DNA of 19,509 nucleotides from Promethearchaeota archaeon (GCA_048941265.1 JBHLNT010000071.1:1-19509); one strand, 5' to 3'. Shown: positions 7,430 through 15,814, counted from the stretch's first letter. Notes: a model not told the origin generated them from the letters alone. Program-made: numbers and translations.

Positions 7430-8713
7430 GTGCAGAAAAAAATCGCTTTTATTGTGTACTATAATAAAGTTAATAAGTATAGTTTTAATGCGTTAATTGG
7501 TGCCTTAGAGAATGAGAAAAATCTTGAAGATATTAAAGTTTATTTTATTAGCACAACAGAAGAGCTTTTAAGGGATTTACTACAGATTGTTAAAGATTCT
7601 GAATATATTATATTAGGAATTTCATTTTTCACAACTCAGATTTGGGAGATTTTCAATTTAATGAAAATTATAAGAAAACAATTTGGAAATAAAGTTTTCT
7701 GTATTGCTGGTGGACCACATCCATCTGGAGATCCTATGGGGACACTTAAAATGGGATTTGATGTTGTTTTTATAGGAGAGAGTGAAGAAACTCTAATAGA
7801 TTTTTTAAATGAGTTTAAGAATGAAAGAGATTATCGAAATATCCAAGGCCTTGCATATATTGATAAAAATAAAAAATACTATCATACTGGTAAAAGAAAT
7901 CCGATTAATTTAGATAGATATCCTCCTTTTCCAGTTAAATATAATAAATTTGGACCAATTGAGATAACCAGAGGATGTCCTTATATCTGCTATTTTTGTC
8001 AAACTCCTTTTATATTGGGCAGTTACCCTCGACATAGAAGTATAGTGTCGATTTGTAAATACGTTAAATTGATGAAAAGAAAAAATTTAACTGATATCAG
8101 GTTCATTACTCCAAATGCTTTTTCATATGGTTCTAAAAATGGTAAAACATTAAATTTTTCTAAACTAGAAGACTTATTGCAGAAAATAAAGGAAATAATT
8201 CAGCCAGAAGGACGAATCTTTTTTGGTTCATTTCCTTCAGAAGTCAGACCCGAACATGTCAATGATTCAACTTTAGATTTAATCCTAAACTATGCATCTA
8301 ATGATAATATCATAATAGGGGCGCAATCTGGCAGCCAGAGAGTATTAGACTTTTGCCATAGAGATCATACCATTGAAGATGTTTATAGGGCAGTGGAATT
8401 AACCTTATCTAAAAATCTCAAAGCTAATGTAGATTTTATTTTTGGGTTACCTAACGAAAATGAACAAGACATAATAGTGACCATCAATATGATGAAAAAA
8501 TTAGCAAAAATGGGAGCAAAAATTCACACTCATTCTTTTATTCCATTACCACAGACTCCATTTGCTAAAAAAGAAGTGGGTAGAATACATAAAGATATTG
8601 AAAAAGCTATAAAGGAATTAACATCGAAAGGATTTGCATTTGGAGAGTGGAAAAAACAAGAAAAATTGGCAATAAAGATTGGAAATTATTTGAAAACTGG
8701 AAAAATAAAATGA
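7430..8713 (+). CDS. B12-binding domain/radical SAM protein (TIGR04013-like)
   Basis: SFFT and AGGPHPSG (cobalamin-binding domain), GESE, EITRGCPYICYFCQTP (CxxxCxxC), SFPSEVRPE, GAQSGS, DFIFGLP, HSFIPLPQTP; GGAGG SD before GTG. Confidence 0.9.
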   Translation: MQKKIAFIVYYNKVNKYSFNALIGALENEKNLEDIKVYFISTTEELLRDLLQIVKDSEYIILGISFFTTQIWEIFNLMKIIRKQFGNKVFCIAGGPHPSGDPMGTLKMGFDVVFIGESEETLIDFLNEFKNERDYRNIQGLAYIDKNKKYYHTGKRNPINLDRYPPFPVKYNKFGPIEITRGCPYICYFCQTPFILGSYPRHRSIVSICKYVKLMKRKNLTDIRFITPNAFSYGSKNGKTLNFSKLEDLLQKIKEIIQPEGRIFFGSFPSEVRPEHVNDSTLDLILNYASNDNIIIGAQSGSQRVLDFCHRDHTIEDVYRAVELTLSKNLKANVDFIFGLPNENEQDIIVTINMMKKLAKMGAKIHTHSFIPLPQTPFAKKEVGRIHKDIEKAIKELTSKGFAFGEWKKQEKLAIKIGNYLKTGKIK

Positions 8714-8725
8714 GTTAATTAAGTT

Positions 8726-9580
8726 TTACCCCATTATAATCAAATCATCATTAATCTGAATGAAGCCTTCTTGTTGTAATTGAACTAATATTTTAGTAAG
8801 TTTATTTTGATTTATTTCTAACTTTTTAATTAACTTCGATGTTGAATAACTTTTATGATTTAAAATTAATTTTAAAATCTTTCCTCTTACTTCCCTATCA
8901 GAACCTTTAAATTGAGATTGTTTTCGATAAGTTCTACTCCTTTTATTAAGTTCAGGATATTTTTTTTTTAACATTACACCATAATCCATAAGAGCATAAT
9001 ACCATTCTCGCGGATTTTCATTGTCAATAGTTTTTTTTACTATTGGTAGGATATTTTTATCATCAACTTTTTGTTTCTGTGGGAAGAAAAAGTAAATATA
9101 TACTCTGCGTATATTTGTTTCTATAAAAATTGATGGTTTATTAAATGCGAATGCAGCAATAGAAGAGGCTGTATTGTGTCCTATTTGAGGAAATGATTTT
9201 AAAATCTCAATTGAATCAGGTAATATTCCCTCATATTCAGTAATTACAGTTTCTGCTATTTTTTTCAAGGCTATAGCTCTTCTGTTATATCCCAAACCTT
9301 GCCATGCTTTTAATACTTCCTCAAGTGAACTTTCTGAAAGAGCTTTAAAATTAGGAAATTTTCTTACAAAATTCAGAAATTTTTCTGATACTCTTCTTGT
9401 CTGAGTCTGCTGAAGCATTATTTCTGAAACTAAGACATTATAAGGAGAGAGATTTTCTCGAAATGGAAATTTTCGGCCGTTCTGCCTATAATATGAATAA
9501 ATAATCTTTTGAAATTCTTGAATTACTTTTTTATTTAAACCACTTTTTTTGTATAATTTATGAAACTCTGATATGAGTAT
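8726..9580 (-). CDS. mutY: A/G-specific adenine glycosylase, short form without Fe-S cluster; start extended to ATA 9580
   Basis: The frame stays open upstream of the ORF-track start (9418): ...FQKIIYSYYRQNGRKFPFRENLSPYNVLVSEIMLQQTQ. Also WQGLGYNRRA, HhH FPQIGHNTA, IETNIRR and ALMDYG. In-frame TAA at 9581-9583. Confidence 0.85.
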   Translation of the reverse strand: MLISEFHKLYKKSGLNKKVIQEFQKIIYSYYRQNGRKFPFRENLSPYNVLVSEIMLQQTQTRRVSEKFLNFVRKFPNFKALSESSLEEVLKAWQGLGYNRRAIALKKIAETVITEYEGILPDSIEILKSFPQIGHNTASSIAAFAFNKPSIFIETNIRRVYIYFFFPQKQKVDDKNILPIVKKTIDNENPREWYYALMDYGVMLKKKYPELNKRSRTYRKQSQFKGSDREVRGKILKLILNHKSYSTSKLIKKLEINQNKLTKILVQLQQEGFIQINDDLIIMG

Positions 9581-9743
9581 TTATATGCACCAATTATGTT
9601 GTTAAGAATGATAATTCGTGAGTTAAAAAGAATTTAGTGACTATATCTTATAAATCTTCTAAATTAATTTTTTAGGAATTATTTGTAATGCAATAGTTCT
9701 AATTGGAACTATTATTTTATTATTTATATTGTTGTTTTTTTAT

Positions 9744-9980
9744 CTAATACTCCCTTCCACGCCAAGTATCTCTTAAATTAAAGTTCATCAATTCTTCAGG
9801 GAAAGGATCTCTTGGTACCCCTAGACCAATTTCAAATTCAGCACATAGAGGGCGAAAATTCGTACATTTTTTTAAAATTTCAACGAAAGGACTCTTAATT
9901 ATACTGCCATTCCATCGACAATAATCAAATTCAATGCATTTGCTAATAACTACGTCTGGTTTTATCAATTTGGTTAGCAT
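9744..9980 (-). pseudogene. Internally deleted DUF523/DUF1722 (YbgA-like, 2-thiouracil desulfurase domain) gene
   Basis: N-terminal DUF523 motifs ISKCIEFDYCRWNG and LCAEFEIGLGVPRDP run directly into PFPEELM, which resembles the DUF1722 C-terminus; only 78 aa. Confidence 0.72.
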
Positions 9981-9995
9981 GCTTAAAATAATAGA

Positions 9996-11912
9996 CTAAG
10001 ATTGTTTCGTGATATCCATAATAAAATCTAAAACTCCTCCCTCCATATGCCTAAATGTTATTTTATATCCTGCATTATCAATAATATGAAGCATTGGTCT
10101 ATTTTCAAGGAGAATTGAACCTGAAAATGATTTATATTTTAGTTCACGAGCGATTTTAACCAAAATATTCAACAAAAATTTAGTAATTCCAAGACCACGC
10201 CAATTTTTATGAGTGACAAATGCCAATTCTGCTATTGAGAGGTTTTCTGTCCTGAAGATTCCTCCAATTGCTATGATTTTTTTCTCGCTATCTTCAGAGT
10301 ATTCTCCAACTAATATCATATTCGTCGAATAATCAATATTTATCATAGGTTGAACTAATCTATGGCGGAAATCATGCACAGGAGTAAAAAATCGATAATA
10401 GCGATCTTGATCATCTAACGAATAATGGAGTTCCTGAAACATTCTCTCATCCGTCGGCTTTACTGGACGGATTTTAATAGTCTTTCCATTTTCTAATTTA
10501 AGAAAAGTCTCATACTTTTGAGGATAAACACTTATTCTTCCGTCTATAGACACGGGTAATTTCTGATCCGAATATACATAATTCCATTTCTTCGCATGTT
10601 CCAGCAATTTTTCTCTAAAATCAGGATGAGCTATATTTATCATTTCAAGGACTCTCTCTCTTATACTTTTACCATAAAGATAGGCAATTCCCCATTCAGA
10701 TACCACATAATGGACGTCTCCACGGGTTATAACTACTCCAGAACCAGTTTGAAGATGAGGAACAATTCGAGATACTAATGTTCCATCTTTAAGCGATGCT
10801 GTGCTGGGAACAACCATTATTGGCTTACCGTCTTTTGCGCGTCCTGCTCCTCTAATAAAATCGACTTGTCCTCCTATTCCACTATAAAACTGATAACCAA
10901 TAGAATCAGAATTTACTTGTCCTGTTAAATCCACAGTGAGAGCGGCGTTAATAGCTACTTGCTTATGATTTTGACTTATAATATAAGGGTCATTACAATA
11001 TTCTGATGTATGAAATTCTACCATTGGATTATCGCTCACAAAATTATATAACCTTCTTGAGCCCATAACGAATGAGCAAATAATTTTATCCTTATGAATT
11101 GTTTTTCTCTTACAGGTTATGACTCCTTTTTCTACCAGATCAACAACTCCATCAGAAAAAACTTCACTATGAACCCCTAAATCTTTTTTATCTATAAGCT
11201 CCTCCGTTACTGCATTTGGAATTTGACCAATTCCCATTTGAATTGTTGATTCATCTTCTACCAAGCTAGCTACGAATTTTGCTATTTTTTTTGATACATC
11301 ATCTGGTTCGCCATAGTTAAATTCAATAACGTCATGATCAGCAATAATAAACGCATCGATATCGTCCATATGTATAAATGCATCCCCTAATGTACGTGGC
11401 ATTTTAGGATTAATCTCCGCAACTACTGTATCTGCTGCCTCCGCAATAGTTTTAACAATATCGACATTAATTCCAAAACTACAAAATCCATATCTATCAG
11501 GAGGACTGACTTGAATCAGAGCAGTGTCTAAATGCATTTGTCCACTTTTAAATATTCGAGGAATTTCAGATAAAGGCATTGGGGTGTAATCTGCCTGCCC
11601 TCTTTCAACAAAGTTACGCATCGACTTTCCAATGAAGAAAGCATTGTGCCTAAAAAGATCTTCAATTCCACCAGCAGTTTCATAATAATCTAAATCGCTT
11701 AAACTTAAAAAATGTAATATCTCAACATCAGGTAATTTTGGACCTAATTCAATTAATTTCTGGGTAAGATTTATTGGTTCCGCACAACCAGAATCTATAA
11801 ATATTCGGTCACCTGGTTTGATGTATTTCTTAATTGCTTTAGTGAGTGTGACTTGCTTGTTTTGATATTTACTAACTATTTTATCAATCTCTTCATGCTG
11901 ATTTGTAGACAA
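9996..11912 (-). CDS. Acetyl-CoA hydrolase/transferase family protein fused to a C-terminal GNAT acetyltransferase
   Basis: SGCAEP, QVSPPDRYGFCSFG, QMGIGQIP, GVHSEVFSDG (catalytic Glu), SGIGGQVDF and VVSEWG, then the GNAT part IRPVKPTDE...RYYRFF...AELAFVTHKNWRGLGI. Start moved to TTG 11912 because the GTG at 11921 lies inside the AGGTGA SD. Confidence 0.92.
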   Translation of the reverse strand: MSTNQHEEIDKIVSKYQNKQVTLTKAIKKYIKPGDRIFIDSGCAEPINLTQKLIELGPKLPDVEILHFLSLSDLDYYETAGGIEDLFRHNAFFIGKSMRNFVERGQADYTPMPLSEIPRIFKSGQMHLDTALIQVSPPDRYGFCSFGINVDIVKTIAEAADTVVAEINPKMPRTLGDAFIHMDDIDAFIIADHDVIEFNYGEPDDVSKKIAKFVASLVEDESTIQMGIGQIPNAVTEELIDKKDLGVHSEVFSDGVVDLVEKGVITCKRKTIHKDKIICSFVMGSRRLYNFVSDNPMVEFHTSEYCNDPYIISQNHKQVAINAALTVDLTGQVNSDSIGYQFYSGIGGQVDFIRGAGRAKDGKPIMVVPSTASLKDGTLVSRIVPHLQTGSGVVITRGDVHYVVSEWGIAYLYGKSIRERVLEMINIAHPDFREKLLEHAKKWNYVYSDQKLPVSIDGRISVYPQKYETFLKLENGKTIKIRPVKPTDERMFQELHYSLDDQDRYYRFFTPVHDFRHRLVQPMINIDYSTNMILVGEYSEDSEKKIIAIGGIFRTENLSIAELAFVTHKNWRGLGITKFLLNILVKIARELKYKSFSGSILLENRPMLHIIDNAGYKITFRHMEGGVLDFIMDITKQS

Positions 11913-13863: not shown

Positions 13864-14122
13864 AGCTATTTCACTTTAATGTCGGTATTAATATTTGTTT
13901 CTAAATAATAATAAAAATTCAACGTTTTAACTATTTGTAATAATGATACTACTTACAAAATCATAATATTATTTTCAGTAATATCAACATATCATCAATA
14001 ATTTATTATCAAAAATAGAAAAAGATATAATTACGAGAAGAGTTTATTTAACTAATAATGTTGATTCGGATTTTTCCAATAATAAATTTATACAAAAAAT
14101 TAAAACTAGAAGGTGATAAATT

Positions 14123-15814
14123 ATAGGTCTGAGATTAAGTTCAACGTTGGCAATGGTGGCGCTATTTGGCCTCATTTATGCAATTGTGTTTACTATTGGT
14201 ATTTGGTTTAGTTGGTCATTGTGGTTAATGGTTGGAATTACACTATTCCTTATCTTCTTTCAATATTTGATATCACCCATCCTGATTAATTGGGTGTATC
14301 ATATAGAATGGATTCCCTACGACCAATTTAGAAATCAATTCCCCCATTTGGCAGAGGCTGTTGACAAAGTGATTGCTGTTAGAGGAATCAAAACCCCCCG
14401 TATGGGTATTATACGAGATGGGAACCCTAACGCTTTTACTTTTGGATGGACAAAAAATAGTGCCAGAATTGTAATTACAACAGGAATCTTAAATTATCTA
14501 AATGAAGAGGAGCAAAAGGCTGTTGTGAGCCATGAATTAGGCCATGTAGTTCATAATGATTTTATATTAATGACATTAGTCTTTGCAGTTCCACTAATTT
14601 TATTAACTATTGCAAGATGGGCTTACTATGCCAGTTGGTTTTCCAGGACCAGAGATAAAGAAGGAGCTATCATAAGATTAGTACTTATCGCAATCGCTAT
14701 TTTATCTTTCATCGCATATTATATTGGTTATCTTATATCCCTAATCATCAGTCGAATAAGAGAATATTATGCTGATGAACATGCTGGAGAGCTTACAGAG
14801 AACCCAAATGCTTTATCTACAGCCCTGGTAAAAATTGCTTATGGTTTATTAATTGATGCTCAATATGAGGAAAAACAAAAGTCAGGTGTTAGAGCTCTAA
14901 GAAGTATTGGAATTTTCGATCCTAAAAGTGCAGTTTCGTTTGCAGCAGAAAGTATGAGTAGTTCAGGAAGATATTCCAAGGACGCAATTCAGGCTGCAGC
15001 AGCTTGGGATCTTTTTAATCCATGGGCTAAATATTATCAAATGTATAGTACCCATCCACTCCCCGCGAAACGGATAATGAGACTAAATAATCAATGCGAA
15101 TTGTATGGAATTAAACCAGAGTTAGACTTCTCAAAAGCTAAGCAAATAAAGAAAGAACAAGTAGGTAAAACTATGATGGATGAATTTTTAGTCGATGTAG
15201 CAGTGAAATTCTTGCCACTATTAATTTTTATCGCTTTAGTTGGAATGACAATACTTTGGATTTTTGGAGCCGCAGGATTTTCAAATATTCTAATAAATAC
15301 ATTTACACTTTCTAACCTCATACTATTCTGGGCCGTTGGTTTTTATCTTATCGGTTTTGGTTCACTTATAAAAACCAAATTTGTCTATAAAGGCGGATTT
15401 GAACCAAAGAATGTCATAGATTTGGTAACAAATATAAAAGTTTCGCCAATACGTACTGTTCCAACCTTTATAGAGGGAAGAATTATTGGAAGGGGTATGC
15501 CCGGCTATTATTTCGGTGAAGATTTATATTTACAAGATAATACTGGCTTATTATATGTTGATTATAGGTTTGGTTTAGGCATAGTAGATTTCTTTTTCGC
15601 CATTACTCGAGTTAAAAAAATAGTTGGTCAGAGAGTAAGAATTAAAGGATGGTATCGCCGTGGACCTAGTCCTTATATTCAAGTCGATACAATTGAAACC
15701 GAGACAGGAAAGCGATATCGAAATTATGCAAAACATATGACATATATCTGGGCAGTCCTCGCTTTCATAATTGGCTTGGTGTTATTCTATATCTGGTATG
15801 CCATACTTCCTTAA
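14123..15814 (+). CDS. htpX: Zinc metalloprotease HtpX (M48), long form with C-terminal membrane and OB-like extension; proposed ATA start
   Basis: PNAFTFG, ITTGIL, HELGH (HExxH), SRIREYYAD, ALVKI, STHP. AGGTGA SD at 14111-14116 lies 6 nt before ATA 14123 (IGLRLSSTLAMVALF); the ORF track uses TTG 14147. Confidence 0.9.
   Translation: MGLRLSSTLAMVALFGLIYAIVFTIGIWFSWSLWLMVGITLFLIFFQYLISPILINWVYHIEWIPYDQFRNQFPHLAEAVDKVIAVRGIKTPRMGIIRDGNPNAFTFGWTKNSARIVITTGILNYLNEEEQKAVVSHELGHVVHNDFILMTLVFAVPLILLTIARWAYYASWFSRTRDKEGAIIRLVLIAIAILSFIAYYIGYLISLIISRIREYYADEHAGELTENPNALSTALVKIAYGLLIDAQYEEKQKSGVRALRSIGIFDPKSAVSFAAESMSSSGRYSKDAIQAAAAWDLFNPWAKYYQMYSTHPLPAKRIMRLNNQCELYGIKPELDFSKAKQIKKEQVGKTMMDEFLVDVAVKFLPLLIFIALVGMTILWIFGAAGFSNILINTFTLSNLILFWAVGFYLIGFGSLIKTKFVYKGGFEPKNVIDLVTNIKVSPIRTVPTFIEGRIIGRGMPGYYFGEDLYLQDNTGLLYVDYRFGLGIVDFFFAITRVKKIVGQRVRIKGWYRRGPSPYIQVDTIETETGKRYRNYAKHMTYIWAVLAFIIGLVLFYIWYAILP

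Follow-up and report, generated by a model that had tools for sequence, protein, structure and literature searches.

Where the start codon of the gene lies

A 19,509-nt stretch of DNA from a Promethearchaeota archaeon (GCA_048941265.1 JBHLNT010000071.1:1-19509; hereafter the window) carries a gene for a MutY-like adenine DNA glycosylase whose N-terminal coding part holds no canonical start codon, which raises the question of where its translation begins and whether the gene is functional at all. The reading that we favour, at a probability of roughly 85%, is that of a functional, iron-sulfur-free adenine DNA glycosylase of the MutYX type, translated from the AUA codon at 9580, in a family in which AUA, AUU and AUC (AUH) would be regular start codons. 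The features on which the argument draws are the following, in window coordinates.

8726..9580, minus strand: full MutYX-type adenine DNA glycosylase gene as proposed here, 284 codons beginning at ATA 9580 and a stop codon at 8728-8726
9588..9591, minus strand: GGTG, Shine-Dalgarno (SD) core, complementary to the 3' end of the genome's own 16S rRNA
9581..9583, minus strand: in-frame TAA immediately before the ATA, closing the frame on its 5' side, read from the sequence layout
9578..9580, minus strand: ATA, proposed start codon, homologous to ATG in five orthologues and with GGTG 7 nt upstream
9419..9577, minus strand: codons 2-54, N-terminal coding part without a canonical start, to which the dN/dS values and a TIGR01084 match from residue 23 refer
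9422..9424, minus strand: GAA, catalytic Glu53, placed by alignment to 8uuc and equivalent to Glu33 of MutYX and Glu43 of GsMutY
9416..9418, minus strand: ATG, Met55, start of the public gene calls, giving a 230-aa product without the catalytic Glu
9068..9430, minus strand: HhH-GPD catalytic domain, residues 51-171, including Glu154 (Pfam PF00730, E 9.7e-16)
8756..8881, minus strand: C-terminal winged-helix-like part of the "X" domain, residues 234-275, preceded at a short distance by Gln221 and Arg229, with weak MarR, FtsK_gamma and TFIIE_alpha matches and an 8uuc alignment running through residue 257

On the minus strand, the in-frame TAA (9583-9581) is followed directly by ATA (9580-9578), and GGTG (9591-9588) precedes this ATA by 7 nt (9587-9581). 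Codons 1-54 include no ATG, GTG or TTG, the first canonical start being codon 55 (ATG 9418-9416). Both the layout and the 54 codons without a usual start had been described in a first-pass annotation of the window and were confirmed here, and the translation contains the MutY-like N-terminus that it quoted. Stretches of at least 54 codons without a start after the upstream stop are uncommon in this genome (72 of 3599 stop-to-stop ORFs of at least 150 codons, 2%). Counted from ATA 9580, the Glu of the SEIMLQQT motif is residue 53 (GAA 9424-9422) and lies upstream of Met55, so that the annotation was also right in stating that a start at ATG 9418 would deprive the enzyme of its catalytic acid. 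The gene called in public for the window (P0002) is nonetheless 230 aa long and begins with MLQQTQ, as do the likewise 230-aa proteins of the four nearest public clusters (79-87% identity), while farther public orthologues, of 283-298 aa, begin in many cases with MLI(S/T)EFH. The orthologues are named in public as "A/G-specific adenine glycosylase" of Promethearchaeota or Lokiarchaeota.

The site was checked on the assembled contigs of four runs, compared over 9300-9800, rather than on raw reads. Contigs of runs X1 and X2, both possibly the source of the assembly, span this interval with 0 differences, and a contig of run X4 (another sample of the same study; depth 3.8) covers 9470-9692, also with 0 differences; the contigs of run X3 gave no alignment on 9300-9800. 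A search for RNA runs covering 8700-10000 listed none. The codon at 9578-9580, for which a check of sequence support had been advised, is read as ATA in the contigs of all three runs that cover it. That ATA stands for ATG through an assembly or sequencing error, a concern since the genome is metagenome-assembled (a MAG) and the check was made on contigs, has a negligible probability against this agreement, one of the three runs being from the other sample, and against the independent assemblies of 12 other species that carry ATA, ATT or ATC at the same codon.

Two further observations were made in the window. A 78-aa ORF directly upstream of mutY (9744-9980, minus strand) is possibly truncated, with the look of the N-terminal half of a longer conserved protein. 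On the plus strand, a second candidate of the same layout was seen, with GGTG at 14112-14115, a spacing of 7 nt and ATA at 14123-14125; it precedes a 555-aa membrane-protein ORF whose first canonical start, TTG 14147, lies 8 codons on.

Identity of the encoded protein

The best solved relative of the 284-aa translation was the MutYX of Eggerthella (8uuc_A; E 1.6e-55, residues 36-257 against 18-239 in the HMMER alignment). The NCBIfam model of canonical MutY (TIGR01084) matched residues 23-206 only, at 153.2 bits, below its cut-off of 286.5; this match and that to HhH-GPD both begin upstream of Met55. No cysteine is present in the translation, hence no four-Cys [4Fe-4S] cluster loop, and no NUDIX-type C-terminal domain was found by Pfam, which returned only weak winged-helix families at residues 233-276. 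Of the canonical MutY catalytic pair, the Glu is kept (Glu53) and the Asp position is occupied by Glu154, as in MutYX, the FIETN that holds Glu154 aligning with LETN of 8uuc. In the HMMER alignment to 8uuc, whose chain index equals the numbering of PMC12631127 plus 2, Glu33, Glu134, Gln201 and Arg209 of MutYX correspond to Glu53, Glu154, Gln221 and Arg229.

MutYX has been described as a clusterless adenine glycosylase of Eggerthella with a new C-terminal 8-oxoG-recognition domain, in which the catalytic Glu is Glu33 (Glu43 in GsMutY), Gln201 and Arg209 recognise 8-oxoG, and the active-site Tyr is Tyr132 or, in other clades, a Tyr of helix H8 (PMC12631127). The window protein resembles it (8UUC) in being cysteine-free, in keeping the catalytic Glu, in having Glu for Asp and a C-terminal domain that is not MutT-like, and in retaining the 8-oxoG-recognising Gln and Arg (Gln221, Arg229). 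It differs from Eggerthella MutYX in about 20 extra conserved N-terminal residues and in the lack of a Tyr at either described position: Phe152 stands at the position of Tyr132 and Asn136 at that of Ala116, and the same Phe and Asn were found in the public Asgard orthologues compared. Its host is archaeal, unlike those of the MutYX clades named in the available text of PMC12631127 (bacteria and Entamoeba). On residue and domain correspondence, the gene is assigned to the clusterless MutYX-type adenine glycosylases and not to classical MutY, with a predicted activity on 8-oxoG:A. The earlier label "mutY", kept below for brevity, holds insofar as the protein is an adenine glycosylase with a MutY-like N-terminus; classical MutY it is not, given the absent Cys cluster, the Glu for Asp and the X/winged-helix domain.

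Start codons and selection among orthologues

In 18 relatives from the same family, the alignment of the orthologue begins at residue 1 or 2 of the protein started at ATA. The codon homologous to ATA 9580 is ATG in 5 of the 18 and ATA, ATT or ATC (ATH) in 12, and in the last one an ATA stands two codons upstream of the homologous position, right after TAA, which brings the ATH total to 13/18; since the relatives are kin, such counts overstate independence. Relatives that share ATH at this start have 60-82% protein identity. In 9 of the 13 non-ATG relatives no ATG, GTG or TTG occurs between the in-frame upstream stop and the ATH. In two others (L005 and L009) an in-frame GTG upstream is part of the SD, and in the remaining two a TTG (L017) or an ATG (L019) stands in frame a few codons upstream; in all four this canonical codon might serve instead. 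Four mutY orthologues from outgroups have an ATG start. On a tree of the 19 mutY proteins, at least 4 changes between ATG and ATH are needed, and at least 8 changes of the codon itself.

Selection on the part of the gene upstream of Met55 was as strong as on the rest. In the three closest pairs, dN/dS was 0.11, 0.11 and 0.14 over codons 2-54 and 0.13, 0.09 and 0.11 over the remainder, and the gene has neither frameshifts nor internal stops. An allele inactivated not long ago by an ATG-to-ATA change, or else a pseudogene making only the 230-aa protein from ATG 9418, would agree with the public gene calls of exactly 230 aa for the window and its four nearest relatives, and with the absence of AUA from the archaeal start codons recognised in the available review text (PMC7531240). 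It is nevertheless highly improbable, because ATH is shared by 13/18 relatives at 60-82% identity, codons 2-54 are as constrained as the others, the frame is intact, and the 230-aa product would be without the catalytic Glu53. A recent inactivating change had been one of the two possibilities offered by the first-pass annotation, which had named orthologous start codons and dN/dS as the comparisons to make. Both comparisons speak clearly: ATH is common to 13 relatives and ATG to 5, selection is not relaxed over codons 2-54 (0.11-0.14 against 0.09-0.13 elsewhere), and inactivation is rejected. Taken together, orthologue codons, dN/dS and the changes on the tree exclude that the ATA is an assembly error or a recent inactivating mutation, and that selection on the gene is relaxed.

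Should translation begin at a non-canonical codon, another one nearby could serve, such as ATA 9574 or ATT 9523: several ATH codons fall within the first 20, and the alignment with solved MutY and MutYX relatives starts only near residue 20. This is quite improbable, since the ATG of orthologues falls exactly on the position of ATA 9580, the 7-nt SD spacing is the one preferred in the genome for ATG and ATH alike, and residues 2-20 are conserved and under purifying selection. Two other ways of reading the 5' end were rejected. Stop-codon read-through or another genetic code does not fit upstream stops that vary among orthologues (TAA, TAG, TGA) and a homology that ends at the ATH. Nor would a frameshift or an out-of-frame start do: the one GTG in the neighbourhood (9590-9588, within the SD) leads into a frame of 10 codons that ends in TAA, and the ATG of orthologues sits in the main frame.

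Shine-Dalgarno context

The 3' end of the genome's own 16S rRNA (contig C222) reads ...GGATCACCTCCT, and GGTG is taken as a true SD core because it is complementary to this end. GGTG was found 4-10 nt before the first canonical start in 139 of 2950 long ORFs, with a peak at 7-8 nt, and a spacing of 7 nt is the peak for both ATG and ATH starts in the window's genome. This scarcity agrees with reviews in which SDs are described as rare in Lokiarchaea (PMC12993045, PMC7531240).

Among the mutY orthologues, an SD match of at least 4 nt located 3-7 nt upstream was present in 11 of the 14 non-ATG genes (window included) and in none of the 5 ATG genes, an association that amounts to at most 4 independent contrasts on the tree, too few for statistics. 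The ATG-bearing orthologues, L006, L007, L008 and L011 among them, were seen to lack an SD, and in several, some 22-32 nt before the ATG, the sequence is AT-rich and TATA-like. A TATA-like stretch so near to an ATG without SD would fit leaderless mRNAs for these orthologues, so that mutY may alternate across relatives between leaderless initiation at AUG and SD-led initiation at AUH.

Genome-wide ATH starts behind GGTG

From every GGTG of the genome, ORFs of at least 150 codons were scanned that had an in-frame stop no more than 12 codons upstream and the next canonical start at least 10 codons away. At 7 nt after GGTG the codon was ATH in 31 of 38 cases, CTG in 3 and ACG in 2. At the three control spacings in the same frame, ATH was far less frequent (3/34 at 4 nt, 4/36 at 10 nt and 7/34 at 13 nt; Fisher p = 4e-14 for 7 nt against these), and at 8 nt it was found in 7/7. 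The genome holds 43 distinct ORFs with GGTG, a spacing of 5-9 nt, ATH and no nearby canonical start, compared with 106 GGTG-led ATG, GTG or TTG sites at the same spacings, so that ATH makes up roughly 3 in 10.

Pfam was run on 40 of the 43 ATH ORFs, the ones left out being mutY itself and two others. In 14 of the 40 the next canonical start falls after the beginning of a domain, and the families concerned are Ras (three ORFs), adh_short, SGL, Abhydrolase_1, CheR_N, TFIIB zinc ribbon, ADC, ATP-synt_D, Phosphodiest, AA_permease_2, polyprenyl_synt and DEAD; the other 26 were uninformative (10 with no family, 16 with a domain too far downstream). By their layout and domain boundaries, some 40 other genes of the genome appear to be AUH-started as well, and the ATA start would not be special to mutY.

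It could be argued that AUH starts come about by termination-reinitiation after an upstream cistron, with a lax choice of codon, rather than by free SD-led initiation, since the TGA of GGTGA falls in the frame of the start when the spacing is 7 nt, and 10 of the 40 AUH genes lie no more than 30 nt from the end of a same-strand upstream ORF. The other 30, however, are uncoupled, and the coupled share is below that of canonical SD-led genes (41/97). At mutY, moreover, the upstream in-frame reading between two TAA codons comprises 6 codons without a start, and the nearest upstream ORF of at least 100 codons ends 415 nt away. Reinitiation is accordingly very improbable as the general explanation, and SD-led initiation at AUH codons remains the preferred reading.

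ATP synthase subunit D and aIF1

Two of the genes with such starts in the window's genome (G000) were followed across the family.

Contig C258:50175-50819, minus strand (locus L131/L182): ATP synthase subunit D (A/V-type), the only copy found by search
Contig C112:9670-9987, minus strand (locus L151/L152): aIF1 (SUI1), with no ATG, GTG or TTG before the zinc knuckle

The gene for ATP synthase subunit D has an ATT start 6 nt after GGTG, with a TAA between. Across 20 family genomes (window's genome included), the codon at this start position is ATH in 16, ACG in 1 and ATG in 3, whereas in 9 genomes of other families it is ATG (7) or GTG (2). The ACG, in relative G011, lies 7 nt after GGTGA. No canonical alternative was present in 8 of the 17 non-canonical cases; in the other 9, which belong to the 16 with ATH, a GTG or TTG stands in frame 3-14 codons upstream and could be the start instead.

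In aIF1 of the window's genome, the fourth codon following the TGA of "aaGGTTGTGA" is ATT, the likely start of the gene. The absence of a canonical codon before the zinc knuckle, together with a conserved ATT or ATC there, was found in 18 of 21 family genomes, most of which also carry a conserved GGTnGTGA motif some 10 nt before the ATT/ATC. In the sister family, aIF1 has ATA in 2 of 8 genomes and TTG, GTG or ATG in 6.

These genes bear on a rival explanation of the mutY start, in which the ATA would have been selected to hold MutYX at a low level, the weak codon being offset by a strong SD as in bacterial infC, pcnB and S. aureus ccpN; low expression had been raised as a possible purpose in the first-pass annotation, but the start can be accounted for without it. 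The SDs found in 11/14 non-ATG and 0/5 ATG mutY orthologues would fit such compensation, and AUA and AUU starts behind extended SDs in S. aureus give about 10% of the AUG yield (PMC13009471). We consider this explanation unlikely, although it is the strongest of the competitors. About 40 other genes have an AUH start, and the AUH start is not a mark of low-abundance proteins because ATP synthase subunit D, a TFB-like factor and small GTPases share it. The mutY codon, too, flips among ATG, ATA, ATT and ATC at least 8 times in 19 orthologues, which looks like near-neutral exchange.

Lineage limits and initiator tRNA

At 6-8 nt after GGTG, 74 canonical starts and 41 ATH were counted in the window's genome, against 27 canonical starts and 1 ATH in outgroup G032 (same order, complete, 31% GC; Fisher p = 4e-4), the outgroup being a thin sample of one genome scanned over 1.2 of its 4.36 Mb. 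To judge from these scans and the orthologue comparisons, the AUH habit runs through this Promethearchaeota (Loki-type) family and is nearly absent from 1.2 Mb of outgroup G032.

The initiator tRNA gene was located by motif search on the minus strand of contig C212, around offset 14386, with a standard CAT anticodon and the GGG/CCC stem. It is split by an intron that directly follows the anticodon loop, and its T arm probably holds another. Aragorn returned only 10-12 tRNAs for the whole genome, none with a CAT anticodon, and so missed the initiator; an Rfam tRNA search, with 150 of 405 candidates scored, gave at least 22 tRNAs, and the initiator was not among the matches listed. No special initiator tRNA was seen in the genome, a 91%-complete MAG in which a second, unusual one may have been missed. 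A reassignment of AUA to Met would be the less likely reading, as ATT, ATC, CTG and ACG are found in this role too and speak for near-cognate initiation.

Discussion

The start at AUA 9580 is strongly supported by the layout of the site, the homology of its codon to the ATG of orthologues, purifying selection on the N-terminal part, the genome-wide enrichment of ATH behind GGTG and the Pfam domains that begin upstream of canonical starts, and it is further supported by a standard initiator tRNA and an anti-SD that matches GGTG. Of the reading that the first-pass annotation had offered, initiation at AUA (or a later AUU) or else inactivation, the part concerning AUA behind a GGTG SD thus stands and the part concerning inactivation falls.

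The mechanism may be pictured as follows. The GGTG of the mRNA leader would pair with the 3' end of the 16S rRNA, and this pairing would fix the P site on the codon 7 nt downstream, where the ordinary initiator Met-tRNA (anticodon CAU) could accept AUA with a mismatch at the third position, so that the first residue of the protein would be Met. Start-codon proofreading in the family would have to be permissive, and AUA, AUU and AUC, occasionally CUG and ACG, would be regular start codons of SD-led genes. We infer each of initiation at AUA, Met as first residue and relaxed proofreading by aIF1.

Near-cognate initiation led by an SD is known from infC (AUU) and pcnB of E. coli. In eukaryotes, initiation at CUG, ACG, AUU and AUA occurs by scanning and in dependence on Kozak context, mostly in uORFs or N-terminal extensions; its stringency is set by eIF1, whose own start lies in poor context, an arrangement of autoregulation. 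The family resembles eukaryotes in the near-cognate set used (ATH, CTG, ACG) and in that its aIF1 is homologous to eIF1, the proofreading factor, and differs in that an SD 7 nt away sets the codon, on which ordinary genes depend as their sole start. The likeness to bacterial SD-led AUU/AUA genes consists in an AUH codon at a conserved start position, behind a good SD and kept across species, and in a near-cognate start of the proofreading factor's own gene, IF3 in bacteria and aIF1 in this family. The initiation machinery, on the other hand, is archaeal and eukaryote-like (aIF1, aIF2), unlike that of bacteria with IF3. In S. aureus, SD-led AUU/AUA initiation has been described for infC (start codon AUA), ccpN, cvfC1 and citZ (PMC13009471). 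In bacteria such starts concern a handful of genes in each genome and are read as throttles with about 10% of AUG yield (PMC13009471), whereas the window's genome has about 40 SD-led AUH genes, housekeeping genes among them.

Archaeal starts are given as AUG, GUG and UUG only in the review text available to us (PMC7531240), and our literature searches met with no description of AUH starts on a genome scale in Asgard archaea or any others, the one case found being a single-gene remark (PMC13394414). That remark attributes a "likely rare ATT start codon" to a heimdallarchaeial tubulin, in which an upstream ATT restores the fold and lies at a plausible distance from the ribosome-binding site (PMC13394414). 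It concerns a single gene of another Asgard class and is made in passing, with no genome-wide or comparative analysis (PMC13394414).

The AUU/AUC start of aIF1 recalls infC, and by analogy suggests a feedback that sets stringency. A wider proposal would be that stringency is relaxed throughout the family, with AUH codons, along with some CUG and ACG, as ordinary starts of about three in ten SD-led genes and an autoregulatory loop of aIF1, like those of infC and eIF1, setting the degree of permissiveness; this we put forward tentatively, as an idea with the odds somewhat against it.

For annotation, the consequence is that standard gene callers shorten AUH-started proteins: the window's gene and its four nearest clusters lose the catalytic Glu in this way, and since the same N-terminal truncation must hit dozens of genes per family genome, domain and metabolic inferences from Asgard MAGs would be biased. 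Were stringency indeed relaxed, a few per cent of the public proteins of the lineage would be N-terminally truncated. MutYX, described so far in anaerobic bacteria and Entamoeba, is now placed in Asgard archaea. The ATA of mutY appears as one instance of a family-wide use of near-cognate starts behind SD sites, and an archaeon with eukaryote-type initiation factors would routinely use AUH, in aIF1 as elsewhere, as against the AUG, GUG and UUG of reviews. If the relaxed-stringency reading is true, near-cognate initiation and feedback of the eIF1 type would predate eukaryotes.
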